DNA from: Erysipelotrichaceae bacterium OH741_COT-311
GTDB taxonomy: Bacteria > Bacillota_I > Bacilli_A > Erysipelotrichales > Erysipelotrichaceae
DNA length: 32,000 bases
Direction: 5' to 3'
Assembly (NCBI GenBank): GCA_003858585.1
Contig: RQZE01000001.1
Coordinates: 120,001 to 152,000, forward strand
The notes under the pieces are model-generated. The model was given only the letters and a program-made list of their open reading frames with translations. It made no database searches and had not been told where the DNA came from. Both the position numbers and the translations under genes were made by a program. Shown piece by piece: positions 8,787-22,004 of this stretch (its first letter is position 1; the number at the start of each line of letters is the position of its first letter).

Positions 8787-9350
8787 TTATTTACTTACAT
8801 TTGTACCAGCAATACGACCAAATACGATGATATCTGTAATCGCATTACCACCTAAACGGTTTGTTCCATGGATGCCACCAGTTACTTCACCAGCTGCAAA
8901 TAATCCTTTGATTACATTTCCATTTGTATCAATAACTTCCGCATGTTCATTGATCTTTAATCCACCCATTGTATGGTGTGTACTTGGAACTACTTTTTGA
9001 ATGTAGAATTTACCTTCACTAATTGGACGTAATTTACCACCTTTATTAAAGTCTTCATCTACTTCATCTTTAATTGATTCATTATATGCAGCAATTGTTT
9101 CTTGTAATTTTGTAGCATCAATACCATAGTGGTTTGCTGCATCTTCAAGAGTTTCAGCAACATAAATCAAATCATCTTTTTGCCATTGTTCAAATTCAAC
9201 TTTATGAAGTTGTGTCATATTTCCAACTGTTTCAATTTCTTGACCCCACACTAAATAAGCCACTTGACCGGTTTGGTTTAAAATCGCATTTGAAATATCA
9301 TCTCTATACACTTTTGCACTAGAGTCTCTAAAAAATATTTGTCCAAATAC
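8787..9350 (-). pseudogene. C-terminal ~190 aa remnant of an FAD flavocytochrome-c / fumarate (urocanate) reductase-type flavoprotein
   Basis: The ORF track's 174 aa start at a GTG. The same frame stays open upstream to 9488, but recognisable homology starts near 9350 (GQIFFRD...). Family motifs are HHTMGGLKIN and GLFAAGEVTGGIHGTNRLGGNAITDIIVFGR. The expected N-terminal FAD GxGxxG domain and ~300 aa are missing, and there is no RBS or promoter. Confidence 0.8.
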
Positions 9351-10296: not shown

Positions 10297-11487
10297 ATGG
10301 CATTCACAAATGGAGAAAAATCAAAGCATGGTAAAAACGCTCAATCCAATATAGAAAGCCTTTTGGAACACTGCAAAAATAAAGGCTATATTAAAGATTA
10401 TCAAAAAGACTTCCGTATAGGAAAAACAGGGTTTTCAAATTCAGGACAATTTTACGCACCTTTCTATGTTTCACTTAACAACTCTAAACATTGGCTAATT
10501 TATTCCACTACTTCCATGCGTACAGATAGAATAAAAGGACAACAATGGGATTCACTAAATATCAAGTTAATTGATAAATCTGTAGATAAAGTGTTTTTAG
10601 TATACTCTGACGGCATTGCTCAATCAGAAATAGATTCGTTCAAAAAACAAAATGATAAATACTTAACTAAATCCGAGTTTTCGTCTATAGATTCGATAAT
10701 TAGTCAAAATGAATTGTATAATTTACTTGAAGCATCTGCGACTTCATCGCTTACAAGTGGACAAATTAAAGATTTACAAGGAAGAAATTTTGAAAGTCTT
10801 GTTGCTACTACATTATCCAATACAGATAATTTACACAAATGGAAAACTAATAATAAAGTATCAACAGGTATGCATTATAATATTTTTAAAGCTATCGTTT
10901 CTTACCTAAATCTAGATAGCTCAGTTATAGAAAAAATTAAAGCAACTTCTGATAGTAAAGTTATAGGAAAACTCCCGTCAGGAGGCAATCCTAAAACAGA
11001 TGTAATGATGGATATTATATTTAAAGATAGCACACAATCAAGAGTGACGATAAGCTGTAAAAGATCCAGTGACAAAAAAGTAAGTGTTCATGAATATTCT
11101 GCTGAGTCATTTGCAAACATCTTAGATTCTAAAAATTCTAGTCTAAGATTGCTATTAGAGAATTTTCAAGCCACTCCTTCCCTATCAAGCTTTGGCGAAA
11201 CTAATATTGACGCTCTTACAAAAGAACTTGCTCCTTATTCTGATAAATTATCTCAATGGGTACTTGCTGGAATACATGGATACGGAGATAAAAATAAACA
11301 TTGGGCAAGCCATATATTAACATATGACAATAATGACAACACAATATCCTTTCATGATATAAATACCTATATTGAATTACTTAAGAATAATGGTGGTAGT
11401 GGTCATTTTGGCACATTATTTACTTGGACTTATCCTTCAAAAAAACGTGGCAAGAGTATTCAACTTAAATGTAAAATCTTAAAATAA
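10297..11487 (+). CDS. Putative type II restriction endonuclease (MspI/HpaII-like active-site spacing)
   Basis: 396 aa, convergent with a C5-MTase and preceded by a C-protein-like gene. The motif GGNPKTD-X17-S-C-K (D..SxK) has the same spacing I recall for the MspI D99/N117/K119 site. The N-terminal part has an STTSMRTDRIKGQQW segment, as in several REases. Confidence 0.6.
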   Translation: MAFTNGEKSKHGKNAQSNIESLLEHCKNKGYIKDYQKDFRIGKTGFSNSGQFYAPFYVSLNNSKHWLIYSTTSMRTDRIKGQQWDSLNIKLIDKSVDKVFLVYSDGIAQSEIDSFKKQNDKYLTKSEFSSIDSIISQNELYNLLEASATSSLTSGQIKDLQGRNFESLVATTLSNTDNLHKWKTNNKVSTGMHYNIFKAIVSYLNLDSSVIEKIKATSDSKVIGKLPSGGNPKTDVMMDIIFKDSTQSRVTISCKRSSDKKVSVHEYSAESFANILDSKNSSLRLLLENFQATPSLSSFGETNIDALTKELAPYSDKLSQWVLAGIHGYGDKNKHWASHILTYDNNDNTISFHDINTYIELLKNNGGSGHFGTLFTWTYPSKKRGKSIQLKCKILK

Positions 11488-11494
11488 CTTTGTA

Positions 11495-11537
11495 TAAAAA
11501 AATGCGACTTTTTTGGTTTAAAAGTCGCATTTTTTTC
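11495..11537. terminator. Bidirectional intrinsic terminator between the convergent R and M genes
   Basis: AAAAAAATGCGACTTTT-TTGGTTT-AAAAGTCGCATTTTTTT, flanked by A/T runs on both strands. Confidence 0.85.
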
Positions 11538-12733
11538 TATACAGTTTTTCTAATATTGGAAATCGCATTTTTCATAGCATCAGCTACTTCCTTCATCATA
11601 GGAACTGCTACAGAATTCCCAAATTGTCTATACATTTGTGTTCTAGAAACTGGAATAATAAAATCATCTGGAAATCCCATTAACCGTTTCAATTCAAGTT
11701 CACTAAATAGACGAACACCTGTATCGCCATCTTTTACGAATGTTCCTGTTAATCTCTGTATCTTATGATAACTTGCACAAAGTGTATTTACTTGTGTTTC
11801 TGAATCAAATCCAATAAGCTGAGGTCTTCCATCATCTTTTTTAAACAAATAACTTTCTTGTAAATGTTTTGATATAGAATATCCCTTAGGATTGTGTTCA
11901 AGAATAGAATTTACTGGTATTCTATGATTTCTGTCTCCCTCAGGAAACGAAAATTTTTCAATTCCAAGATCCTTCCTAAACCCTACAATAACGATACGCT
12001 CTCTTCGCTGAGGCAACCCAAAATCTTGTGCATCCAAAACCTTATAAAAAATAGAATAATCTAAATGGTTAAGATTATCCAATATTACTTTAAAAGTTCT
12101 GCCTCCATCATTTGTTAGTAAGCCCTTTACATTTTCTAACAAAAACATTTTAGGCATCTTCTTTTTTAGTATTCTTAAGACATCAAAAAACAAAGTCCCT
12201 TGAGTTTCATGAGCAAATCCCTGTCTTTTACCTATGTTACTAAACGGTTGGCATGGAAAGCCTGCTAATAAAACATCATGGTCTGGTATATCTTTTTCAT
12301 CTATTTTAGTTATATCACCAAAAGGAACTTCACCATAATTTGCCTCATAAGTTTTTGCAGCATACTTATCCCACTCAGAGCTAAACACACACTTTGTATT
12401 AGCATCTTCAAATCCTTTTCGAATTCCTCCAATTCCCGCAAATAAATCTATAAATGTTAGTTTGTCTGTATTATTCTCAAAAACTTTTTCGTTTTTTGCT
12501 CGTCTCTCTATTGGTTTCATATTTTCTGCTGCATTTGCTTTAAGTTGTTCCAACCCAGCACCAATTAATTCTACACATTTTTGACTAAATGTATTTGCAC
12601 CTTCAATATTTAATTGCATAATTTCTTCTATCTGATCTTCTGATAAGTATACATTACGCCCTTTTTTCTTATCAGAATTGGGAATAGATTTTCTTCCAGC
12701 CCCTTCTCTAAGTCCACCACGCATAGTTTTCAC
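11537..12733 (-). CDS. DNA (cytosine-5)-methyltransferase with a ~90-aa RHH-like N-terminal extension
   Basis: Motif I FIDLFAGIGG, IV GFPCQPFS, VI ENVKGL, VIII QRRERIVIVGF, X GNSVAVPMM. N-terminus: GGLREGAGRK...RNVYLSEDQIEEIMQL. The ORF track starts at GTG 12733; ATG 12724 (after GGAGAGG) is the more likely start. Confidence 0.95.
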   Translation of the reverse strand: MKTMRGGLREGAGRKSIPNSDKKKGRNVYLSEDQIEEIMQLNIEGANTFSQKCVELIGAGLEQLKANAAENMKPIERRAKNEKVFENNTDKLTFIDLFAGIGGIRKGFEDANTKCVFSSEWDKYAAKTYEANYGEVPFGDITKIDEKDIPDHDVLLAGFPCQPFSNIGKRQGFAHETQGTLFFDVLRILKKKMPKMFLLENVKGLLTNDGGRTFKVILDNLNHLDYSIFYKVLDAQDFGLPQRRERIVIVGFRKDLGIEKFSFPEGDRNHRIPVNSILEHNPKGYSISKHLQESYLFKKDDGRPQLIGFDSETQVNTLCASYHKIQRLTGTFVKDGDTGVRLFSELELKRLMGFPDDFIIPVSRTQMYRQFGNSVAVPMMKEVADAMKNAISNIRKTV

Positions 12734-12840: not shown

Positions 12841-12908
12841 CCATTTTCCTCCCAAAATATAATAGAGAGTATTTTTTACTCTAAATATAAAAATGGAGGT
12901 AAAAACAT

Positions 12909-13265
12909 ATGATAATTGATTACTTACTCATTGGTATGAGGGTTCGTGAGATAAGGTTAAGTGCTAAGTTCACGCAGGAGATGCTTGCAGAACTATCGGA
13001 TTTATCACCAGTATATATATCAAACATTGAAAACAACAAGAAAAAGCCGAGTCTAGAATCTGTAGTAAAAATAGCAAATGCCCTTGGCATTACAGTAGAC
13101 GAACTGTTAACTGGAAATCTACTGTCTCACCCATCTGACTATCAGACAGATATCGATGCACTTATGTATGACTGTGACAAATATGAAAAGCGTTTATTTT
13201 ACGAAATTCTAAAGTTCACAAAGCATATCATCCGTTCCAACCAATGGTATATAGGTAAAAGATAA
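12909..13265 (+). CDS. XRE-family HTH transcriptional regulator
   Basis: 118 aa. HTH_3 core IREIRLSAKFTQEMLAELSDLSPVYISNIENNKKKPSLESVVKIANALGITVDELL, with GGAGG 9 nt upstream of the ATG. Confidence 0.85.
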   Translation: MIIDYLLIGMRVREIRLSAKFTQEMLAELSDLSPVYISNIENNKKKPSLESVVKIANALGITVDELLTGNLLSHPSDYQTDIDALMYDCDKYEKRLFYEILKFTKHIIRSNQWYIGKR

Positions 13266-13280
13266 GCCTATTTATCAAGA

Positions 13281-13327
13281 AACCATAAACCGGGGGATAG
13301 TCTCTTAACCTCTGGTTTATGGTTTTT
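13281..13327 (+). terminator. Hairpin with T-run after the XRE gene
   Basis: AACCATAAACC-N22-GGTTTATGGTT followed by TTT. An 11-bp stem with a large loop, sitting 55 nt upstream of the recombinase start. Confidence 0.5.
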
Positions 13328-13381
13328 CCATTATGAAAATAATATGATAAATATAAATTTCATAGGAAAGGAATCACGCTA

Positions 13382-15241
13382 ATGAACGAAAATGAAGTAA
13401 GACTTAAAACAACTGCAGACAAAAAACAAAAAATAAGAGAAAGGTATAAGGGAATCGACTTGGATAAACTTGATGTAATTCCAGCTGTTCCTGTAGAGGA
13501 TATTTTCAGCTTAACTGCGTCTAAAAGAGTTGCTGTCTATGCTAGGGTATCTACCGATGATCCAAACCAGACTTCATCCTATGAATTACAGAAAAATCAT
13601 TACACCGATATGATAAAAAGATACCCTAATTGGAGTCTTGTAGATATTTATGCTGATGAAGGAATCTCAGGTACTTCACTTCAGCATCGAAATTCTTTTA
13701 TGCGAATGATGGATGATTGTAATAATGGAAAAATAGACCTTATCGTAACAAAAAGTGTATCCAGATTTGCAAGAAATATAGTTGACTGTATTGATTATGT
13801 GAGAAAACTTAAGAATATGAATCCGCCTATAAGTATATTCTTTGAGTCAGAAAATCTTCATACTTTGGACTCTCATAGCGAAATGACCCTTGCCTTCATG
13901 GCCACCATCGCCCAAGAAGAAAGTCATACTAAAAGTGAAGTCATGAACTCATCCATAGAAATGCGTTTTAAGAGAGGCCTTTTCCTAACTCCCCCGCTAC
14001 TTGGTTATGACCATGATGAAGATAGAAACCTAGTCATAAATGAAGATGAAGCGAAAGTTGTCCGTCTCATCTTCTTTATGTACCTATACGGATATAGCTG
14101 TCAAATCATAGCAGAAACACTAACGCAATACGGATGTAAAACTAAAAAAGGAAATACAAGTTGGTCTTCCGGTAGCATCTTACAAATTCTTCAAAATGAA
14201 AGACACTGTGGTGATGTTCTTGCTAGAAAAACCTATACACCAAACTTCTTAGACCATAAATCCAAGAAAAACAAAAAGAACAGAAATCAGTATAGGCAAG
14301 TAGGTCATCATGAAAGTATCGTATCAAGAGATGACTTCATAGCTGTTCAGCATCTCATAAACAACTCAAAATATGGAAACAAGGGTATTCTCCCCTCTCT
14401 TCATGTTATAAAAGAAGGATCACTTCTCGGATTTGTATCTATCAATCCCAGATGGGCAGGATTTAAGCCCGAGGAGTACACTGAAGCCTGCTTATCAGCT
14501 TATGAAGAATTAGATGGGGAATATATCCAAAATAACAAGATAACTGCTCTAGAGGGCGATTTCGACCTTAGAGGATATGAAATAGCACATGGCCAGTTCT
14601 TCAATTCAAGTGGTCGAGCAGCAATCAATATTTCTTCAAGTGAGATTACCTTTTCTGCAGAAACTGTAAGAAAGTTTGGAGATATTTCTCATGTAGAACT
14701 TCTGATACATCCTGAAAAAATGATACTTGCTGTAAGAGCTTCTACCCCATCCAATAATCAAGCTGTTATATGGTCAAAAAAGAAAAATGGGAAAACACTA
14801 CCAAAGATTATTCGTGGCAAAGCATTTCTCCCTACCATATTCAGACTGTTAAACTGGAAAACAAAATGTAAATATAAAATGCTTGGCATCCTTCATGAAA
14901 AGGAGAATGAGAAAGTTCTCCTTTTTGACCTAAAAGACACGGAGATAATAATGCCCAGTTCTTTTGTAACACCATCAAAAGAAACCTCCATGAAACCTTT
15001 TACTTCCGATACAGGGCAGAAAGTACTTGCATATCCTGCAGACTGGAGTGAGGGTTTCGGCAAAAAATACTATAGCCATGCAAAAGAAAAGGAAATCGAA
15101 GAAGACGCTTTATCCGAATGGGATGTTACTACAGAAGGTTTGCCATATAAAGAACCGGAACTAAAGGTAACGGACAGAAATACCTTAGATAAAGAAATCA
15201 AAAATATCATGAGCGAAATGGAGGTTAATACTGATGCTTGA
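13382..15241 (+). CDS. Large serine recombinase (resolvase/invertase N-domain plus recombinase domain) with an atypical C-terminus
   Basis: 619 aa. Catalytic region RVAVYARVSTDDPNQTSSYELQ, then LIVTKSVSRFARN. Recombinase-domain motif LQNERHCGDVLARKTY. There is no CxxC pair anywhere, so no canonical zinc-ribbon domain. Confidence 0.92.
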   Translation: MNENEVRLKTTADKKQKIRERYKGIDLDKLDVIPAVPVEDIFSLTASKRVAVYARVSTDDPNQTSSYELQKNHYTDMIKRYPNWSLVDIYADEGISGTSLQHRNSFMRMMDDCNNGKIDLIVTKSVSRFARNIVDCIDYVRKLKNMNPPISIFFESENLHTLDSHSEMTLAFMATIAQEESHTKSEVMNSSIEMRFKRGLFLTPPLLGYDHDEDRNLVINEDEAKVVRLIFFMYLYGYSCQIIAETLTQYGCKTKKGNTSWSSGSILQILQNERHCGDVLARKTYTPNFLDHKSKKNKKNRNQYRQVGHHESIVSRDDFIAVQHLINNSKYGNKGILPSLHVIKEGSLLGFVSINPRWAGFKPEEYTEACLSAYEELDGEYIQNNKITALEGDFDLRGYEIAHGQFFNSSGRAAINISSSEITFSAETVRKFGDISHVELLIHPEKMILAVRASTPSNNQAVIWSKKKNGKTLPKIIRGKAFLPTIFRLLNWKTKCKYKMLGILHEKENEKVLLFDLKDTEIIMPSSFVTPSKETSMKPFTSDTGQKVLAYPADWSEGFGKKYYSHAKEKEIEEDALSEWDVTTEGLPYKEPELKVTDRNTLDKEIKNIMSEMEVNTDA

Positions 15242-15890
15242 GCAAACACTTCCGGAAAATATCGACAATAAAAAGAAACTTCCGAAAATAGAAGTAACTG
15301 AGACAGAATCTTTTAACTATGATGGATTTCAGGTAGTACGTGGAGAATTCTTCTCGCACATCTTTGAACCATCATTTACCCTAAATAAAAGCAAGGTTTC
15401 TGTAAATAAAGCGTGCATCCGCAAATTACCCGATATATAGTATGTTCAGATTCTTGTTAATTCTGCAGAAAAGAAACTGGCTGTAAGACCATGTCTTGAA
15501 GAGGAGAAAGACTCTGTGAAATGGTGCTCTTCCGGAGAAAAGAAAAACCCCAAACAAATAACCTGCAGAATCTTCTATGCCAAAGTTATAGAGCTGATGG
15601 GTTGGAATCCTGACAACAGATATAAACTGCTTGGAAAACTAATGAAATCAAATGATGAGTACCTTTTTATCTTTGATTTAAATAACCCTGAAATATATAA
15701 GCCAAAGGTAAGAAACGATGGTAAATCTGTTATATCAAGAACACCCTCCTACCCTTCAAGCTGGCAAAATCAATTCGGTGTTACAGTTGAAGAACATAAA
15801 AAGAATCTACAAGTAAATATATTTGATGGGGTTGCTGTATTTGGAATTTTAGAAAATAGCAATGAAGCACCATCAGGAAGCGAGGTATAA
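15234..15890 (+). pseudogene. Paralog of the recombinase C-terminal domain, interrupted by one in-frame TAG (15438..15440)
   Basis: ORF-track entries 15234..15440 and 15516..15890 share a frame with no other stop between them. The start overlaps the recombinase stop (ATGCTTGA). The joined product aligns with recombinase residues ~395-530. Confidence 0.6.
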
Positions 15891-15891
15891 C

Positions 15892-16263
15892 ATGAATGCT
15901 TATGAAAATCAAAAGCCTATTGTATGTATAGATCTGAAGAAAGACAGGATCAGAATTCACAAAACCACTCTTCATATGATTGGCGATCCTTCTTTTATAA
16001 ATCTTTTAGTAAATCCTAAAGAGAAACTTATCGCTATAAAAAAATCCTCTGCTAAAGACAAATCAGCACTTAGGATAAGAAGTAACCAATTAGATGATGG
16101 AAACTGTGTGGAATTCGGATGCAGAGACCTTATTTTACTTCTAAAGGATATAGATAATTCATGGCAAATAAACTCCTCTTATAGAATATATGGAAAATAT
16201 AACAAAGGAGAATGCTTGGCACAGTTCTCTATAAAAGATTCCATACCAACGGAGGAAATATAA
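15892..16263 (+). CDS. Second free-standing paralog of the recombinase C-terminal domain
   Basis: I prefer ATG 15892 (GAGG 6 nt upstream, one nt after the previous stop) over the ORF-track start at 15862. GDPSFINLLVNPKEKLIAIKKS aligns with GDISHVELLIHPEKMILAVRAS of the recombinase. Confidence 0.65.
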   Translation: MNAYENQKPIVCIDLKKDRIRIHKTTLHMIGDPSFINLLVNPKEKLIAIKKSSAKDKSALRIRSNQLDDGNCVEFGCRDLILLLKDIDNSWQINSSYRIYGKYNKGECLAQFSIKDSIPTEEI

Positions 16264-16267
16264 TCCT

Positions 16268-17206
16268 ATGAATAATGTAGAATGGAATTTACCAAAACTG
16301 GAAAAAGATGAAGAATTCATGTTTCTCATACAGCCTTGCTCAGAATCTGCTTATACAAAACTTGAGGAAAGTATCGTTGATGATGGCTGCCTATCTCCAA
16401 TCACTATATGGAATGGAATTATAGTTGACGGTCATAAAAGATATGATATTTGTAAAATATGGGGTATCCCCTTTAACTTAAAACAAATACAGGCATCTAC
16501 AAAGGCAGACGTATATTATCAGATATGTTCTGAACAGCTAAAACGGGAAGACCTCACACGAGAAATGCGTAAATATCTCATAGGAAGATCCTATCAAGCT
16601 GAGGTTAAAAAGAACGCAAATTTATATGTGCGTTCTAACGAAATGAAAGATAGCAAAAGTCATCCCTTTATTCCTCCTAAAGCCTACAACAAACAAGAAA
16701 TATCCCATAAGATTGGAAATACATTTCATATAGCACCCGGCACAGTTTTTAAATATGAAACCTATACCAAAATAATAAATAGTCTAAGAGACAAAGACCT
16801 TAACTTAGCAGAAAATATACTATCTGGTAAAATACGAGTTTCTCATGAAAATATGGTAGAACTTAATAGACTTCCTTCTCATGAAGTAAAAAGTCTAAAT
16901 CAATATATCACTGAAAATGGTATTGCACATATAAATTATGCTGTAATAAGGCAGTCACTTAAATGGAAATATACTTATACGGAAAAGTCTGAATCCCGAA
17001 GAAGAAAACAGGAGTCATCAAAGCTTGCTGCAATAAAAAAGATGCCTGCATATGATCCTGAGCCAATCTATCAAGTGTTTCTTTCACCTCCCCATCTTGG
17101 CGAAGTATTATTGACCGAGCAAGGCTTAATACAGATTTTTCAAAGGCATCTAAAAATATTAAAGAGAAAACACTATATCAGCTTAGACTACTTAAGTTGT
17201 CGATAA
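16268..17206 (+). CDS. ParB/Srx-superfamily N-terminal domain protein
   Basis: 312 aa. DGCLSPITIWNGIIVDGHKRYDICKIWG matches the ParB-like GxxxP(I/V)xV...DGhxR core. The remainder is helical and basic. Confidence 0.7.
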   Translation: MNNVEWNLPKLEKDEEFMFLIQPCSESAYTKLEESIVDDGCLSPITIWNGIIVDGHKRYDICKIWGIPFNLKQIQASTKADVYYQICSEQLKREDLTREMRKYLIGRSYQAEVKKNANLYVRSNEMKDSKSHPFIPPKAYNKQEISHKIGNTFHIAPGTVFKYETYTKIINSLRDKDLNLAENILSGKIRVSHENMVELNRLPSHEVKSLNQYITENGIAHINYAVIRQSLKWKYTYTEKSESRRRKQESSKLAAIKKMPAYDPEPIYQVFLSPPHLGEVLLTEQGLIQIFQRHLKILKRKHYISLDYLSCR

Positions 17207-17242
17207 AAGAATTAGAAGATGTTATAAAGGAGGATACTACAA

Positions 17243-18100
17243 ATGGAAGACCTACTGAATTATGTGCCGAATGTTCACTTCGAACAGATACCAATAAAGA
17301 ACCTGGTTTCTAACCAAAATTATCAAAGGAATTTATCCACTAGGCACGTTCAACGAGCCGCTGCTAACTTTGACTTATATCAGGTAAATCCTGTAAAAGT
17401 AAGCCGTAGAGATGGAATAAATTATGTCTTTAATGGTCAACACACCATAGAAATTATTGCCCTTGTTTCAGGTTCTAGAGAAACTCCTGTATGGTGCATG
17501 ATATATGATGAGCTGGAGTATACCGAAGAAGCTGATATTTTTGCAAACCAAATGAAATATGTAAAGCCACTACTGCCCTATGAAACTTTTATAGCAAGTA
17601 TAGAGGCTGGAAGTGATAAGCATCTCATCATTCAGGATTTAGTCGAATCCTATAACCTTACTCTATCATCAGCCAAAATACCCGGTGGCATCTGTGCTAT
17701 TTCCACTTTAGAAACAATATATGATAAACATGGCTTTCATGTCTTAGACCATGTCCTAAGGCTCCTAATTGGCACTTGGGAGGGTGAACCTAATTCCCTT
17801 AGTGCAAATATGCTAAATGGTGTAGCAAGACTTGTGGTGGCTTATGGAGACCAAATAAAGGATACCATTTTTAAAGAAAGACTTGGCAGAGTATCCATCA
17901 AAACTCTAAGTCAGACCGCCAAAGACAGACGTGTTGGCTCTCTTGGCTATGCTGAAGCTATCCTCATTTTTTATAACAAACGTTCCAAAGTTCATCTCAC
18001 TTGGGATAAGCTATATGCAAAAAAGACTCCGAGGAAAAACAAGGCTGAAGATTTGATGGAATATGAACCACCTGATGATTCTGATGATGAAACCATCTAG
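17243..18100 (+). CDS. Second ParB-like / DGQHR-like domain protein
   Basis: 285 aa. IPIKNLVSNQNYQRNLSTRHVQRAAANFDLYQVNPVKVSRRDGINYVFNGQHT resembles ParB/DndB-type DGQHR cores. Acidic C-terminal tail, with AAGGAGG as RBS. Confidence 0.6.
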   Translation: MEDLLNYVPNVHFEQIPIKNLVSNQNYQRNLSTRHVQRAAANFDLYQVNPVKVSRRDGINYVFNGQHTIEIIALVSGSRETPVWCMIYDELEYTEEADIFANQMKYVKPLLPYETFIASIEAGSDKHLIIQDLVESYNLTLSSAKIPGGICAISTLETIYDKHGFHVLDHVLRLLIGTWEGEPNSLSANMLNGVARLVVAYGDQIKDTIFKERLGRVSIKTLSQTAKDRRVGSLGYAEAILIFYNKRSKVHLTWDKLYAKKTPRKNKAEDLMEYEPPDDSDDETI

Positions 18101-18122
18101 TATAGTTAAATATGTAATAATA

Positions 18123-18160
18123 AAATAACAGGGATTATTTTTTCTATTCCCCTGTTATTT
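18123..18160. terminator. Bidirectional terminator between convergent operons
   Basis: AAATAACAGGG-N16-CCCTGTTATTT, lying between the stop at 18100 (+) and the stop at 18166 (-). Confidence 0.7.
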
Positions 18161-18165
18161 TATCG

Positions 18166-19149
18166 TTATTCGTTATTCATTCTTTGTTTGGAAATTTCAC
18201 TAGCTTCATGAATCGTATCAGCAGTCAATAATGTATCAAGCATTGCCCATTTGCGACCAGATGCGTATATGTTTCCTGTCTTAACGACTTTTGATGGTAT
18301 AATTGGTTTCCCAAGGCTGTACACAAAATGCTCATATTTATCTTCCACATTAGGCATTTCCTCAATCTCATCATGAAGATTTTTTACTATCGAATAGCTT
18401 TCAATATGATAAATTGACTGTAATCTTCCTCCATACCGAAAACCTATATAATTAGGTGGTTCTTTAGGCCAACCATTAATTCCAAATGGGTGAAAATATT
18501 TCATTTTCTTTTCTACTAATTCTATCCATGTCAGATCACAATTTTCTGGTTTTGCAGTTGAAAGTGAAACCACATATACCCAATTTGATTCTTTTGCCTG
18601 CATAGTCATTATTCCTCCCAAATATCTCATTAATTCTTTTAACAAATTTTTTTGTGATATACTAGAACCAACTTTTGCATAATTTGCTAGTTCATATATT
18701 CTCTTCCAGGACAAATGATTTACTGGAATATCATTTATAACCTTAAAAGGCAAATATGCATTTACATAATCTTCACTACACTCTGACATTGAAATAATAG
18801 CTTTATATGAGACTGGACTTTCTATAATATTTCGTCTTTGTGAATATAAAGCAAGTTGCTCAGCACCTGGTAAAATCCAGCCCCTTTTGGCTTCAATAAT
18901 TATATAAAATGAAGTATCATCAGTTATTTCCAAATCCGTTATACCTTTATTCTTCTCAAATTCCTGGTACTTAATCCTAACATTTTGTGTATTAATCTCT
19001 AACGACATCACTTCATTGATTACTGCTTTAAGAAATTCGGGACAGCGTGCTAATGCCCAAGCAATACTTTTAGTTATGTCATTCTCAAGATTTCCTATTA
19101 ACTGAAAAACACTACTTACTTCAGTTCCATATGCAACTAACTCTGACAT
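18166..19149 (-). CDS. PD-(D/E)XK-fold nuclease-like protein with an unassigned C-terminal domain
   Basis: 327 aa. GITD72LEITDDTSFYIIIE86AK88RGW gives D-X13-E-x-K. C-terminal ~140 aa: YFHPFGINGWPKEPPNYIGFRYGGRLQSIYHIESY, with no family I can name. Strong RBS GGAGAAGGAGAT. Confidence 0.6.
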   Translation of the reverse strand: MSELVAYGTEVSSVFQLIGNLENDITKSIAWALARCPEFLKAVINEVMSLEINTQNVRIKYQEFEKNKGITDLEITDDTSFYIIIEAKRGWILPGAEQLALYSQRRNIIESPVSYKAIISMSECSEDYVNAYLPFKVINDIPVNHLSWKRIYELANYAKVGSSISQKNLLKELMRYLGGIMTMQAKESNWVYVVSLSTAKPENCDLTWIELVEKKMKYFHPFGINGWPKEPPNYIGFRYGGRLQSIYHIESYSIVKNLHDEIEEMPNVEDKYEHFVYSLGKPIIPSKVVKTGNIYASGRKWAMLDTLLTADTIHEASEISKQRMNNE

Positions 19150-19172
19150 ATCTCCTTCTCCTTGAATACCTC

Positions 19173-19685
19173 TTAAAGCTTGGGCTTTGGCAAATCAATA
19201 TCAAATTTACCACCTAACGCTGCGGCACCTAATCCTACGATTGAAATCACAGCTACTGTCCCTGCACCTATAACTTTCCAATAAAACGCTTTATTTTCAC
19301 TATCTTTCTTTTCTGCCATCCGAGCAATTTCCATCATATTATCCAAATAATATTTTTTCTCTTCAAAAGAAATCTCCTCTTGAGAAACACATTTTTCTAG
19401 TGCGGAAAGTACCTTGTCATATAAATTAAAACAATCTTTGCTACTTTCTTTGCTTGCATCTAATGTTTTCTCTAAAACTGTTCTATATTCCTTAAAAGCT
19501 TCTAATGACATCTTCGCAAATTCAGGGAACTGTTCAATTGCTTTTTTTGCAACTTCTGGATCCATATTTTGTAGCATTGATGCGAAGTTAATAACTTTAT
19601 CTTTAGTCATATGCCTAAAATCTGGTATATCTAATTGCTTTAATACTTCCACTTCACTAAGTTGTTTACTCATATTCTTCCTCAC
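19173..19685 (-). CDS. Helical protein with a single C-terminal transmembrane anchor
   Basis: 170 aa from GTG. The likely real start is ATG 19673 (GAGGA upstream), overlapping the upstream stop as ATGAGTAA. The TM segment is FYWKVIGAGTVAVISIVGLGAAALGG near the C-terminus; the rest is charged and helical. Confidence 0.6.
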   Translation of the reverse strand: MRKNMSKQLSEVEVLKQLDIPDFRHMTKDKVINFASMLQNMDPEVAKKAIEQFPEFAKMSLEAFKEYRTVLEKTLDASKESSKDCFNLYDKVLSALEKCVSQEEISFEEKKYYLDNMMEIARMAEKKDSENKAFYWKVIGAGTVAVISIVGLGAAALGGKFDIDLPKPKL

Positions 19686-20148
19686 CTTCTATAGGATTTA
19701 CATTAATTTCTTCAAAATTAAATGCCCCCATTGGATATTCGCTTATGTATCCTGAAACACGAAATTGTCTACCACAATTTTTGCAGTAATTATCTTCTGT
19801 ATCAAATTCATATATGGTTTCTGGACCCATTTGCCTCTCATAGGAACTTTCATCACATTCATCAACTAAATCTATTTTATTTTTACTTGAACAATATGGG
19901 CAGTCAACAATACGTTCCAAACTAATACCTTCAGCATATTCTTCATAATAAGAGTCTTGATTTTCATTCATATCAAACTCTCTCATCCTGAGCATACCAT
20001 ATGCTTCTTTCAAAGCTGCACGAAAAACATCTGATTTATTTTTTAATTCTTTTCTATCACATACATACTGCAACATCTGTTCTTCTTCATCATTAACCCG
20101 AACACGATACATTTTGTCTCTAGCATCATCTATTTTAGGTCTCGCCAT
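19666..20148 (-). CDS. Ribbon-helix-helix (CopG/MobC-like) N-domain fused to a CxxC...CxxC zinc ribbon
   Basis: 160 aa. RPKIDDARDKMYRVRVNDEEEQMLQYVCDRKELKNKSDVFRAALKEAY has the RHH pattern. The zinc ribbon is CPYC-X41-CKNC. Acidic tail, with AGGAG 10 nt upstream. Confidence 0.65.
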   Translation of the reverse strand: MARPKIDDARDKMYRVRVNDEEEQMLQYVCDRKELKNKSDVFRAALKEAYGMLRMREFDMNENQDSYYEEYAEGISLERIVDCPYCSSKNKIDLVDECDESSYERQMGPETIYEFDTEDNYCKNCGRQFRVSGYISEYPMGAFNFEEINVNPIEGEEEYE

Positions 20149-20173
20149 TGTAACAAACTCCTTTCTTTATTAT

Positions 20174-20215
20174 TGTAGCCACACTTATTATAAATGTAGC
20201 TACAATAATTGTCAA
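20174..20215 (-). promoter_or_regulatory. Consensus sigma-A promoter with two palindromic operator-like sites
   Basis: Minus strand: TTGACA (20215..20210), 17 nt, TATAAT (20192..20187). The perfect palindrome TGTAGCTACA (20195..20204) sits in the spacer, and the near-copy TGTAGCCACA (20174..20183) sits at about +1. Confidence 0.65.
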
Positions 20216-20235
20216 GTTTTTGTTGCCACAAAAAC
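20216..20235 (-). terminator. Hairpin directly after the SymE-like stop
   Basis: GTTTTTGT-TGCC-ACAAAAAC, an 8-bp stem abutting the -35 box of the downstream promoter. Confidence 0.5.
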
Positions 20236-20424
20236 TCAATTTGTATTTTTCTTTATAGAAATAATCAATTTCCCATTCTGACAATCAACATTATATTTCT
20301 GCCCTACTTTAAATCCAAATTCCTCTAACCATTTACCTTTCATCATGATGGTAGGTGTATCATTATATTTATTTCCACTCATTCCATAGACCTTCAAAGT
20401 TCTATTATTCCTCTCCATAATCAA
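20236..20424 (-). CDS. SymE-family (AbrB/SpoVT fold) type I toxin-like protein
   Basis: 62 aa. PTIMMKGKWLEEFGFKVGQKYNVDCQNGKLII matches the SymE signature (L.G.WLeeaGF..G..v.V....G.L.I). Confidence 0.72.
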   Translation of the reverse strand: MIMERNNRTLKVYGMSGNKYNDTPTIMMKGKWLEEFGFKVGQKYNVDCQNGKLIISIKKNTN

Positions 20425-20590
20425 CTCCTTTTCTAAAATGCTATCGTTAAATTATGCACCCTATTAAAAATTTTCACCTGTGTAATTTATATGTAATTAT
20501 TTTTGTTTTACGATTTTTAGCTATTTTATGCTCATTAAACTTCCTAAAATCTCTTGAAATACAGCTATTTCACATACGCACCCTAAAATA

Positions 20591-20740
20591 TCATTGTATC
20601 CATTTGCGTGTGGCGTTGTTTCCTTGTCCACTACCAGCGTATGTACCATCTTTTATACCACTACTTTTCGTTGTTGTATTACAAGCAACAAGTGAGATTA
20701 GCATAAAAAACGATAGTAAACCTACTACAATTTTTTTCAT
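20591..20740 (-). pseudogene. N-terminal stub of a lipoprotein / FMN-bind flavoprotein, probably the 5' end of the gene whose 3' end is at 8787..9350
   Basis: My translation is MKKIVVGLLSFFMLISLVACNTTTKSSGIKDGTYAGSGQGNNATRKWIQ*. GGAGGAAAGG is the RBS. It has a lipobox LVAC, and DGTYxGxGxG is the usual start of FMN_bind domains. The sequence diverges after GNN (about 20610). Confidence 0.5.
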
Positions 20741-20852
20741 TTCCTTTCCTCCTGAGCAGTATTTTAACACTATTGTTTAAAAAAAATTAATACAAATTTA
20801 CTTTATTAAATATTAAAATATTGTTAAAATATTATCAAGGAGGATTTTATAT

Positions 20853-22004
20853 ATGTCGAATCGCATTATCTTAAATGAACGTTCTTACCACAAAGCTGGA
20901 TGCATTCAAGAAATTGTCAATGAAATCAAAGCACGTGGATTCAAAAAAGCATTTGTATGTACCGATCCGGATTTAGTCAAATTCAATATATCAGCAAGAG
21001 TTACAAATCTTTTAGATGAACATAATCTAAAATATGTAATGTTTACAGACATTAAAGCAAATCCAACAATCGAAAATGTTAAAAATGGTGTAGAGGCTTT
21101 TAAACAATCAAAAGCAGATTACATCATTGCCATTGGTGGAGGATCAAGCATTGATACAGCAAAAGCCATTGGTATTATTCTAACAAATCCCAAATTTAAA
21201 AATGTAAGAAGTTTAGAAGGACTGGCACCAACTAAGAATCCTTGTGTTCCAATTATGGCTATTCCAACAACAGCCGGTACAGCTGCAGAAGTTACGATTA
21301 ACTATGTAATTACTGATGTTGCGAAAAATCGTAAAATGGTATGTGTAGATCCTAACTGTTTGCCAATTGTTGCTTTTGTTGATAGTGAAATGATGGAATC
21401 TATGCCAAAATCTTTAACAGCAGCAACAGGTATGGATGCTTTAACACATGCGATTGAAGGATATATCACTAAAGGGGCTTGGGAAATGAGTGATATGTTC
21501 CATTTAAAAGCAATTGAAATCATTTCCCGTTCATTACGCAAAGCAGTAAAGAATAATAAAAAAGCTTATGAAGATATGGCATTAGGACAATATTTAGCCG
21601 GTATGGGATTCTCTAATGTCGGTTTAGGTATTGTACACTCTATGGCACATCCATTAGGTGCTTTATATGATACACCTCATGGTATTGCAAATGCGATTAT
21701 TCTACCGACTGTTATGAAATACAATGCATCTGCAACAGGAAGTAAATATCGTGAAATCGCAAGAGCTATGGGTGTAAAAGATGTAGATGCTATGAATCAA
21801 AAACAATACCGTAAAGCTGCATGTGATGCAGTTAGACAATTGGCAATGGATGTAGGTATTCCAACTACATTAAAAGGCATTGTAAACATAGAAGATCTTG
21901 ATTTCTTAACACAATCTGCAATGGATGATGCATGTCGACCGGGAAATCCAAAAGATCCAACATTTGAAGATATTAAGAATTTATATTTAGAATTATTAAA
22001 ATAA
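20853..22004 (+). CDS. fucO: Lactaldehyde reductase (iron-containing group III alcohol dehydrogenase)
   Basis: 383 aa, collinear with E. coli FucO as I recall it: RIILNE..., ADYIIAIGGGSSIDTAKA, VRSLEGLAPTKNP, IPTTAGTAAEVTINYVITD, GMDALTHAIEGYITKGAW, GFSNVGLGIVHSMAHPLGA. Confidence 0.9.
   Translation: MSNRIILNERSYHKAGCIQEIVNEIKARGFKKAFVCTDPDLVKFNISARVTNLLDEHNLKYVMFTDIKANPTIENVKNGVEAFKQSKADYIIAIGGGSSIDTAKAIGIILTNPKFKNVRSLEGLAPTKNPCVPIMAIPTTAGTAAEVTINYVITDVAKNRKMVCVDPNCLPIVAFVDSEMMESMPKSLTAATGMDALTHAIEGYITKGAWEMSDMFHLKAIEIISRSLRKAVKNNKKAYEDMALGQYLAGMGFSNVGLGIVHSMAHPLGALYDTPHGIANAIILPTVMKYNASATGSKYREIARAMGVKDVDAMNQKQYRKAACDAVRQLAMDVGIPTTLKGIVNIEDLDFLTQSAMDDACRPGNPKDPTFEDIKNLYLELLK

Follow-up and report, generated by a model that had tools for sequence, protein, structure and literature searches.

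The subject of this report is a cassette of three minus-strand genes, here called g1, g2 and g3, that lies in a stretch of 32,000 nucleotides from Erysipelotrichaceae bacterium OH741_COT-311 (contig RQZE01000001.1, positions 120,001 to 152,000); the whole of this stretch is referred to as the window, and all coordinates are counted from its first letter. A first-pass annotation of this DNA, made from the letters alone, had presented the three genes as a candidate for an undescribed three-component system. The account towards which we lean on balance is a different one, i.e., that the cassette combines a stand-alone, type IV-like modification-dependent nuclease (g3), expressed from a promoter under the control of g1, with an independent membrane protein (g2). 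For the cassette as a whole, a role in defence is the reading that fits best.

Open reading frames (ORFs) were confirmed on the minus strand, at the places where they had been annotated, for g1 (19666–20148, 160 aa), g2 (19173–19673, 166 aa) and g3 (18166–19149, 327 aa). The mechanical ORF of g2 begins at a GTG at 19685, but the length of the 120 listed homologues, all of about 166 residues, supports a start at the ATG at 19673. The start of g2 runs 8 nt over the stop of g1 (junction ATGAGTAA), and 23 nt separate the stop of g2 from the start of g3, a spacer that holds AAGGAGAAGGAGAT, a strong ribosome-binding site. Upstream of g1 there is a sigma-70-type promoter, TTGACA-17-TATAAT (20187–20215, minus strand), in which all 12 of the 12 hexamer positions match the consensus; it lies 39 nt from the start codon of g1, it is the sole perfect site in a 3-kb scan (17900–20900), and it is also kept in related loci. 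A palindromic candidate operator (20169–20209, assigned to no strand), formed by two 20-nt arms that are 90% complementary, extends across the -10 box, and these arms co-vary in L027/L097 and in L098, with their complementarity kept or improved. Directly past the stop of g3, between this gene and the ParB-like genes that converge with it, a terminator-like hairpin was found (18119–18164, minus strand), with a minimum free energy of -17.6 kcal/mol as compared with -5.7 +/- 2.1 for shuffled sequences (z -5.8; 0 of 200 shuffles equal it). Given the promoter, the palindrome, the hairpin and the tight gene junctions, g1, g2 and g3 probably form one regulated transcription unit, in which a single strong promoter would drive the three genes and the hairpin would end the transcript. 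The compact and tightly linked operon drawn in the first-pass annotation, with the overlap of g1 and g2 and the ribosome-binding site ahead of g3, was in this way borne out. A further element (20215–20236), in which a loop of 4 nt closes a perfect stem of 9 bp (AGTTTTTGT GGCA ACAAAAACT), begins at the stop of a SymE-like gene located ahead of the operon and abuts the -35 box; it may act as a weak terminator or insulator between that gene and the operon.

The two domains of g3 and related enzymes

Profile searches of g3 against Pfam, NCBIfam, PHROGs and PADLOC gave no matching model, and neither its single sequence nor the family profile gave a match beyond chance level among the sequences of the PDB. 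Its family has 1670 matches in a 90%-identity collection, the best of them a hypothetical protein from an Erysipelotrichaceae oral isolate, and none of the 120 that were listed carries a Pfam domain. At 50% identity the family forms 930 clusters; the 150 listed are nearly all of about 325 residues and align with g3 from end to end. A comparison with 50 relatives that are 32–48% identical to g3 revealed that residues E22, D72, E86 and K88 are invariant, and the same is true of Y218, R238 and D305 in the C-terminal half of the protein.

The N-terminal half, residues 1–185 (18595–19149, minus strand), holds E22, D72 and the E86-A-K88 motif. In the AlphaFold2 model of g3, with a predicted local distance difference test (pLDDT) score of 80, this region shows the alpha-beta-beta-beta-alpha core of the nuclease fold with D72, E86 and K88 placed on strands, and its Foldseek matches include EcoT38I, the nuclease domain of Cap4, Nt.BspD6I and EcoO109I. 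Likewise, g3 matches viral proteins annotated as 'PD-(D/E)XK nuclease superfamily protein' with E=2e-7 (over 308 columns) and 1e-5. The nuclease core that had been recognised around D72, E86 and K88 is supported by these data, and g3 is predicted to be a PD-(D/E)XK nuclease with an intact catalytic motif.

The C-terminal domain, residues 186–327 (18169–18594, minus strand), was assigned from a model of the domain alone, which reached a pLDDT of 91.5. It had been described as a separate domain that could not be placed; it is indeed a separate domain, but Foldseek places it as a PUA-like (ASCH/YTH/EVE-type) beta-barrel. PUA-like domains dominate its 50 best fold matches in the PDB, and those among the 50 that are annotated are ASCH, YTH, EVE, TRIP4 or the CMoRE sensor. 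Zymomonas ASCH was matched with a probability of up to 1.00 and a template modelling (TM) score of 0.42–0.51; further matches are TTHA0113, AF2351, the ASCH domain of TRIP4, YTH readers of N6-methyladenosine (m6A), the EVE protein THYN1 bound to DNA with 5-methylcytosine (5mC), and the CMoRE/PD-T4-3 C-terminal domain, which senses 5-hydroxymethylcytosine (5hmC). The predicted topology of the domain is a strand, a helix and four to five strands, and a matching topology has been described for the PUA/ASCH barrel (PMC7641849). To judge from its modelled fold, the domain appears to be a divergent PUA-like barrel, for which the most likely role is that of a reader of modified bases. The nuclease with a second, sensor-like domain that the first-pass annotation had anticipated is accordingly matched by known folds in both halves.

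Modification-dependent restriction enzymes are built in a modular way, from a sensor that in most cases is of the PUA superfamily (YTH, SRA, EVE, ASCH) and a nuclease of the PD-DExK, HNH, GIY-YIG or PLD type (PMC12191111, PMC6765204). Since a nuclease joined to a PUA-like reader is the architecture of type IV enzymes, g3 is predicted to be type IV-like. It would be a self-sufficient effector, in which the N-terminal PD-(D/E)XK domain would cut DNA and the barrel would recognise a modified base, i.e., a methylated, hydroxymethylated or otherwise decorated C or A, in incoming phage or plasmid DNA, so that only DNA with a foreign modification would be cleaved. PvuRts1I and AbaSI, which are type IV enzymes dependent on 5hmC or its glucosylated form (ghmC), are proteins of about 300 aa with a PD-(D/E)XK-type nuclease and a beta-barrel reader of flipped modified bases, and have no methyltransferase partner. 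g3 resembles them in length, in the order of its domains and in the lack of a methyltransferase partner; however, there is no sequence match between them, neither enzyme is found among the 50 best fold matches of g3, and the reader of g3 is nearest to ASCH and YTH and not to the SRA domain of these enzymes, of whose group g3 is not a member. PvuRts1I is an established example of one polypeptide in which the nuclease is N-terminal and the sensor C-terminal (PMC4027163).

The same order is seen in CMoRE (PD-T4-3), a single-component, 5hmC/ghmC-dependent enzyme whose nuclease lies at the N-terminus and whose sensor lies at the C-terminus (PMC12923530). Its structure (9u75) was matched by the C-terminal domain of g3 with a fold probability of 0.87–0.93 over approx. 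100 columns; however, the match is weak (TM 0.37–0.38 on the query), the nuclease of CMoRE is of the GIY-YIG and not of the PD-(D/E)XK type, and the PADLOC model of PD-T4-3 does not match g3. Other stand-alone fusions of a PUA sensor and a nuclease are TspA15I and VcaM4I (EVE-HNH) and YenY4I (EVE-DUF3427-PD-(D/E)XK) (PMC6765204, PMC7897488). In contrast with g3, the endonucleases of this PUA superfamily have the sensor at the N-terminus and the nuclease, mostly HNH, at the C-terminus; moreover, the barrel of g3 is ASCH/YTH-like and has no Pfam match. The screen of Lutz et al. contains only a single example of PUA with PD-(D/E)XK, which has an additional DUF3427 (PMC6765204). From its sequence and its models, g3 appears to fit the type IV kind but to belong to no described family, and as far as we have found, the arrangement of a PD-(D/E)XK domain followed by a PUA-like domain is uncharacterised in the literature. 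If g3 is modification-dependent, the type IV repertoire would gain a very large nuclease family (approx. 930 clusters) that has no database name. Enzymes of this kind are of use in the mapping of epigenetic bases, and they explain why phage therapy and the transfer of DNA meet barriers in anaerobes of the mouth and the gut.

Distribution of g3 and co-occurrence of the three genes

Around g3, in 101 loci that carry it, 679 neighbouring ORFs were grouped into 464 clusters, and no conserved neighbour was found across these loci; the neighbours include restriction-modification (R-M) genes, regulators, integrases, housekeeping genes and insertion sequence (IS) elements. In Paenibacillus and in Mycobacterium marinum, plasmids carry g3 as a lone hypothetical gene. 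In Atopobium, an actinobacterium, the copy of g3 (L011/L013, 5983–6981) is 93.5% identical in nucleotides to window 18169–19167, and the homology covers the ORF up to its last sense codon plus the 18 nt before its start, which hold the ribosome-binding site; from these limits it appears to be a gene-sized transfer between phyla, without the flanking operon. The absence of a conserved neighbour, the lone plasmid copies and the lone copy in Atopobium lead to the conclusion that g3 is autonomous and has no obligatory cognate methyltransferase. The family is present in Firmicutes, Actinobacteria, Acidobacteria, Planctomycetes, Omnitrophica and Dehalococcoidia, on plasmids and in prophages, and no homologue of g3 was found in deposited phage genomes.

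In at least five lineages (L011–L014, L019, L022–L025), homologues of g3 lie directly downstream of genes of the RumA family (TRAM plus U5 methyltransferase). A functional pair of this methyltransferase and g3 was considered and discarded, given that the methyltransferases are far more diverged (25–50% identical to each other) than the adjacent copies of g3 (60–84%); on the same grounds, a recurrent insertion hotspot fits better. It is known that rumA is an integration site for streptococcal elements. This recurrent position, reminiscent of a site preference, together with the gene-sized transfer and its breakpoints at the ends of the ORF, is what could be expected if g3 were no defence gene but a nuclease (resolvase-like or homing-type) that serves the repair, recombination or mobility of its element. 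We consider this very improbable indeed: g3 matches no transposase, relaxase, resolvase or homing-endonuclease family; its second domain resembles the readers of bases or nucleic acids typical of restriction enzymes; and it is found in defence islands, at prophage ends and on plasmids, where no fixed repeats flank it.

Another context was observed for a homologue that is 68% identical to g3 and present in more than 200 contigs (L005–L009). This gene adjoins split fragments of a serine recombinase, and approx. 1 kb downstream of it there are genes for a PycTM protein, two cyclase-like proteins and a protein resembling an ADP-ribosyltransferase toxin, a set that looks like a Pycsar-type island.

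The co-occurrence of the three genes was followed in two sets: 79 species-representative genome loci with relatives of g3, which were searched for the other proteins of the window, and a pooled set of 215 genome, metagenome and viral-contig loci. In the first set g1 was found twice, both times in relatives that are 97–99% identical, and g2 three times, i.e., in these two loci and in L024; the remaining 76 of the 79 have neither gene. In L024, g2 (47% identical) is located 1.7 kb downstream of g3 (60% identical), in another order and behind a different DNA binder. In the pooled set g1 is present in eight loci, with g2 always next to it and g3 next in the six whose contig is long enough; wherever the g3 of these trio loci could be scored cleanly it is 82–99% identical. 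L121 and L127, which appeared as distant trio loci with a g3 of 50–58% identity, were dismissed as such after six-frame inspection revealed frameshift-ridden assemblies of close relatives. A comparison by blastn with a metagenome-assembled genome (MAG) of Solobacterium (L027, 97%) placed the breakpoints of the shared DNA block, for which no strand is given, at 17871 and 20629; the block covers 17710–20630 in L121 and 18166–20629 in L127, it ends at 20621 in L010, and its right end always falls at approx. 20621–20630, where the island ends.

The trio is confined to near-relatives of this island end, in which g3 is at least 82% identical. Beyond them co-occurrence fails, and the idea of a new three-gene system has to be corrected as overstated; on the other hand, the statement that the trio corresponds to no named system was upheld, as none of the three genes has a match in a named system and, as had been predicted, PADLOC gave no match (no family at E<=1 for g1 or g3, and only sub-threshold noise for g2). 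It is quite improbable that g1, g2 and g3 are obligate parts of one new defence system, for instance with g2 as a membrane sensor that licenses g3. Such a system would account for the single promoter, the overlapping or near-abutting genes and the single terminator, for the gene order and spacing that the relatives of the block all retain, for the presence of g2 and g3 homologues in L024 and for the location of g2 next to other nucleases elsewhere, e.g., GmrSD in L096; nevertheless, it does not agree with the restriction of the trio to one closely related block, with the large majority of species-level g3 loci that lack g1 and g2, or with the 93.5% identical g3 that stands alone in Atopobium, nor with the facts that most g2 loci have no g3 and that diverged copies of g1 occur alone or with an unrelated protein of 133 aa.

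Several observations weigh against a modification-dependent g3 that acts independently of its neighbours. The likeness of its C-terminal fold is at the superfamily level (E of 5e-3 or worse, TM of about 0.5), and this domain has no sequence-level match in PDB, Pfam or NCBIfam; therefore RNA or a free nucleotide could be its ligand. Among the ASCH proteins there are nucleoside amidohydrolases such as YqfB. They also include RNases, among them ZmASCH (PMC5615036). PUA-type enzymes of this kind are reportedly seldom found near methyltransferases (PMC6765204), and a gene for a 5-methylcytosine (m5C) methyltransferase lies within four genes of g3, nearby and not adjacent, in 13 of the 101 loci; the island of the window itself encodes an MspI-type m5C methyltransferase. 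Given these methyltransferases, any dependence of g3 on 5mC would need to be specific for a sequence context. In addition, the tight spacing of g2 and g3 is kept in every relative of the block. Lastly, in a clade that is 51–53% identical to g3 (L031–L038, L051–L064, L085–L087, L208), a DUF6508 protein of 133 or approx. 335 aa, in one case fused to a Macro domain, is encoded approx. 10 nt upstream, and in five loci a YpsA-SLOG protein is encoded 8 nt downstream. DUF6508/g3/YpsA-SLOG is another recurrent three-gene arrangement, which hints at accessory partners.

These partners at 8–10 nt and the RNase activity of ZmASCH are also what could suggest a ligand-gated abortive-infection nuclease, in which the PUA-like domain of g3 would sense a free nucleotide or danger signal (for example a modified deoxynucleoside monophosphate or an ADP-ribose derivative) or a modified RNA, and would unleash indiscriminate cleavage. 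In agreement with this possibility, the nuclease half of g3 resembles that of the ligand-gated effector Cap4, and the defence module PUA-Cal-HAD is reported to sense free m6-dAMP (PMC12871103). We regard it as rather unlikely, given that most g3 loci do not have such partners, that no cyclase or other signal generator is a conserved neighbour, and that the characterised single-protein fusions of a nuclease and a reader act on modified DNA (PMC6765204, PMC12923530). The stand-alone, modification-dependent g3 is thus the reading that we retain for the rest of the text.

The probable regulator g1 and the membrane protein g2

The first gene of the operon encodes a protein that had been described as the fusion of a ribbon-helix-helix (RHH) module, a zinc ribbon and an acidic tail. 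Its cysteines are arranged as CPYC (residues 83–86) and CKNC (122–125), and an alignment of 14 homologues revealed that C83, C86, C122 and C125 are invariant, as is the N-terminal motif R..YRVRVN..E..ML.Y. Residues 1–55 match phrog_876, a phage 'transcriptional repressor', with E=2.3e-5, and gave no match to a Pfam RHH model; the zinc-ribbon matches in Pfam are all below their cut-offs, and a profile of g1 found only chance-level matches among PDB sequences. The N-terminus is basic and residues 56–160 are acidic (28 D/E versus 8 K/R), in accordance with the description given above, but the terminal acidic tail is not conserved among the homologues. On the basis of these motifs, g1 would be a rare protein that joins an RHH-like region to a four-cysteine zinc ribbon; just 19 homologous clusters were detected in 5.8 billion proteins. 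Diverged forms of g1 (50–59% identical) were found alone between portal and terminase genes, in L219 (50%) paired with a 200-aa homologue of g2 of 30% identity, and with the unrelated protein of 133 aa, next to GmrSD and serine recombinases. Since the operator-like palindrome lies over the promoter, the simplest reading is that g1 is probably an autorepressor, i.e., a dimeric RHH-type protein that would repress its own operon from the palindrome that spans the -10 box, to which it would bind.

This layout recalls the C-protein restriction operons, in which a small DNA-binding regulator comes first, a palindromic operator lies over the promoter and the nuclease is encoded downstream. With a probable regulator, a candidate operator and a nuclease gene downstream, the cassette resembles them; however, g1 is RHH-like with a zinc ribbon and not a helix-turn-helix (HTH) protein, there is no methyltransferase in it, and a gene for a membrane protein stands between regulator and nuclease.

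This membrane protein, g2, has 415 homologues, nearly all of 166 aa, in Clostridium, Oceanobacillus, Hypnocyclicus, an Ignavibacteria MAG and Faecalicoccus; the mean column identity across phyla is 70%, and none of the 120 that were listed has a Pfam domain. It shows a single hydrophobic segment at residues 134–152 (Kyte-Doolittle 19-residue mean of 2.1), in agreement with the one transmembrane helix that had been placed at its end, and because this segment is C-terminal and the only one, g2 is predicted to be a tail-anchored membrane protein. Profile searches gave no usable match in Pfam, NCBIfam, PHROGs or PADLOC, the best in PADLOC-DB 2.0.0 being sub-threshold noise on a coiled region (GajB, E=0.002), and against PDB sequences the matches were at chance level both for the single sequence and for the profile. 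Homologues were found on 30 IMG/VR viral contigs and in a Clostridium innocuum phage; in deposited phage genomes there are only two weak ones.

The loose neighbours of g2 include terminase, portal, serine and tyrosine recombinases and an IS200-type transposase, and in many contigs g2 stands alone beside IS200-type transposase genes. A tight same-strand gene lies upstream of g2 in only 41 of 113 loci, and a tight gene downstream in only 30 of 98; among these tight partners are GmrSD, the PADLOC candidate PDC-M33, AbiJ-like, PDDEXK_5, HTH_3, HTH_17 and SEC-C proteins. As the upstream partners belong to 15 clusters and the downstream ones to 13, g2 has no fixed partner; it is often encountered in accessory regions of the defence and prophage type. 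It would probably have a separate function, e.g., in exclusion or abortive infection, and would not be a required partner of g3. This conserved and unannotated protein, repeatedly found beside defence genes, is flagged here in its own right.

Three of these contexts deserve description. Next to the integrase end of the Clostridium innocuum phage, a homologue of g2 is located 12–16 nt downstream of a complete PDC-M33 (A, B and C; E=1e-97 to 1e-206), as seen in L191 (2137–6500) and in phage NatCom_9291 (PV036421.1, 2137–6506). In Hypnocyclicus thermotrophus (L096, 3288–7450), a GmrSD-type (DUF262) type IV enzyme is encoded 7–9 nt upstream of the g2 homologue and a 643-aa SEC-C/TPR protein approx. 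15 nt downstream, with a serine recombinase and an HNH gene farther upstream. In L024 (7629–10118), downstream of the g3 homologue, the g2 homologue belongs to a small cassette; its other members are a 76-aa ORF that by eye resembles an AbrB/SpoVT-type DNA binder (no Pfam match), an HTH_17 protein of 160 aa that has a membrane segment, and a multi-pass membrane protein of 305 aa. Here too, the start of the g2 homologue overlaps the preceding stop.

The way in which g1 and g2 are joined suggests yet another possibility, i.e., a toxin-antitoxin (TA)-like addiction pair that stabilises the island, with g1 as the antitoxin, g2 as a membrane-acting toxin and g3 as unrelated cargo. As in type II TA systems with RHH antitoxins, the putative antitoxin comes first and its stop overlaps the start of the next gene, the RHH-like N-terminus of g1 is joined to an acidic C-terminal region, and the operator is of a likely autoregulatory type. 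Besides, g1 and g2 are still paired in L219 at 50% and 30% identity, and varied DNA binders (HTH_3, HTH_17, a zinc-ribbon membrane protein) tightly precede g2 elsewhere, which brings to mind the mix-and-match pairing of type II TA systems. Nevertheless, a pair of this kind is unlikely: g2 is often without an upstream partner, and many of the genes in the 41 tight cases do not encode DNA binders (GmrSD, PDC-M33C, radical SAM); g2 also occurs alone beside transposase genes and shows no likeness to a known toxin family in Pfam, PADLOC or the PDB, and g1 is also present without g2. We further mention, as a long shot, that g2 could be a promiscuous membrane anchor that ties PUA-nuclease, GmrSD, PDC-M33 and AbiJ-like effectors to the envelope, where foreign DNA enters, while g1 sets expression; g1-g2-g3 would then be one case of a new class of 'anchored' type IV restriction, and the g3 family a very large and untapped group of modification-dependent nucleases whose reader has a new specificity.

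The surrounding island

Housekeeping genes (grpE, hrcA, pyruvate:ferredoxin oxidoreductase) extend to approx. 9.3 kb of the window. Beyond them there is a gene for an MspI-family endonuclease (10297–11487; PF09208, E=7e-59), convergent with a gene for an m5C methyltransferase (11537–12733; TIGR00675, E=1.5e-98). By these family matches, 10297–12733 is a predicted complete type II R-M pair of the island, and consequently the host probably carries m5C in its DNA at the sites of this pair. A place for g3 as partner nuclease in a type II R-M pair was considered and rejected, since the local m5C methyltransferase already has its MspI-family partner and most g3 loci do not have an adjacent methyltransferase.

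The island continues with an HTH gene, a serine recombinase of 619 aa (13382–15241) and two adjacent ParB-like genes (16268–18100) that are convergent with g3 and encode proteins of 312 aa, with ParB-type PHROG matches, and of 285 aa, with DUF6551 (E=8e-32). Ahead of the g3 homologue of L026 there is a comparable recombinase-ParB-ParB module. In L121 the cassette block is joined straight to sequence that matches window 12845–12992, and because the segment between them is absent from this locus, window 12992–17710, with the HTH gene, the serine recombinase and both ParB-like genes, behaves as a separable module.

On the other side of the cassette, the SymE-like gene (20236–20424, minus strand) encodes 62 aa and matches PF08845 (SymE_toxin) with E=5.9e-14, above the curated cut-off. 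It accompanies the trio in L010, L027, L098 and L127, and lies ahead of the operon's own promoter. With regard to a SymR RNA, no Rfam family reached its gathering score anywhere in the window.

The operon is found at the right end of this serine-recombinase island, and the shared block ends where the island ends, which is consistent with the cargo position that had been attributed to it. The right end (approx. 20621–20630, as given by the homology breakpoints of four loci) is located within a truncated lipoprotein/flavoprotein gene, in an ORF of 59 aa that has a lipoprotein signal (20591–20770), and at 8790–9311 there is a C-terminal fragment of a flavoprotein of the FAD_binding_2 family; the island, of approx. 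11 kb, may have split one gene or replaced part of it.

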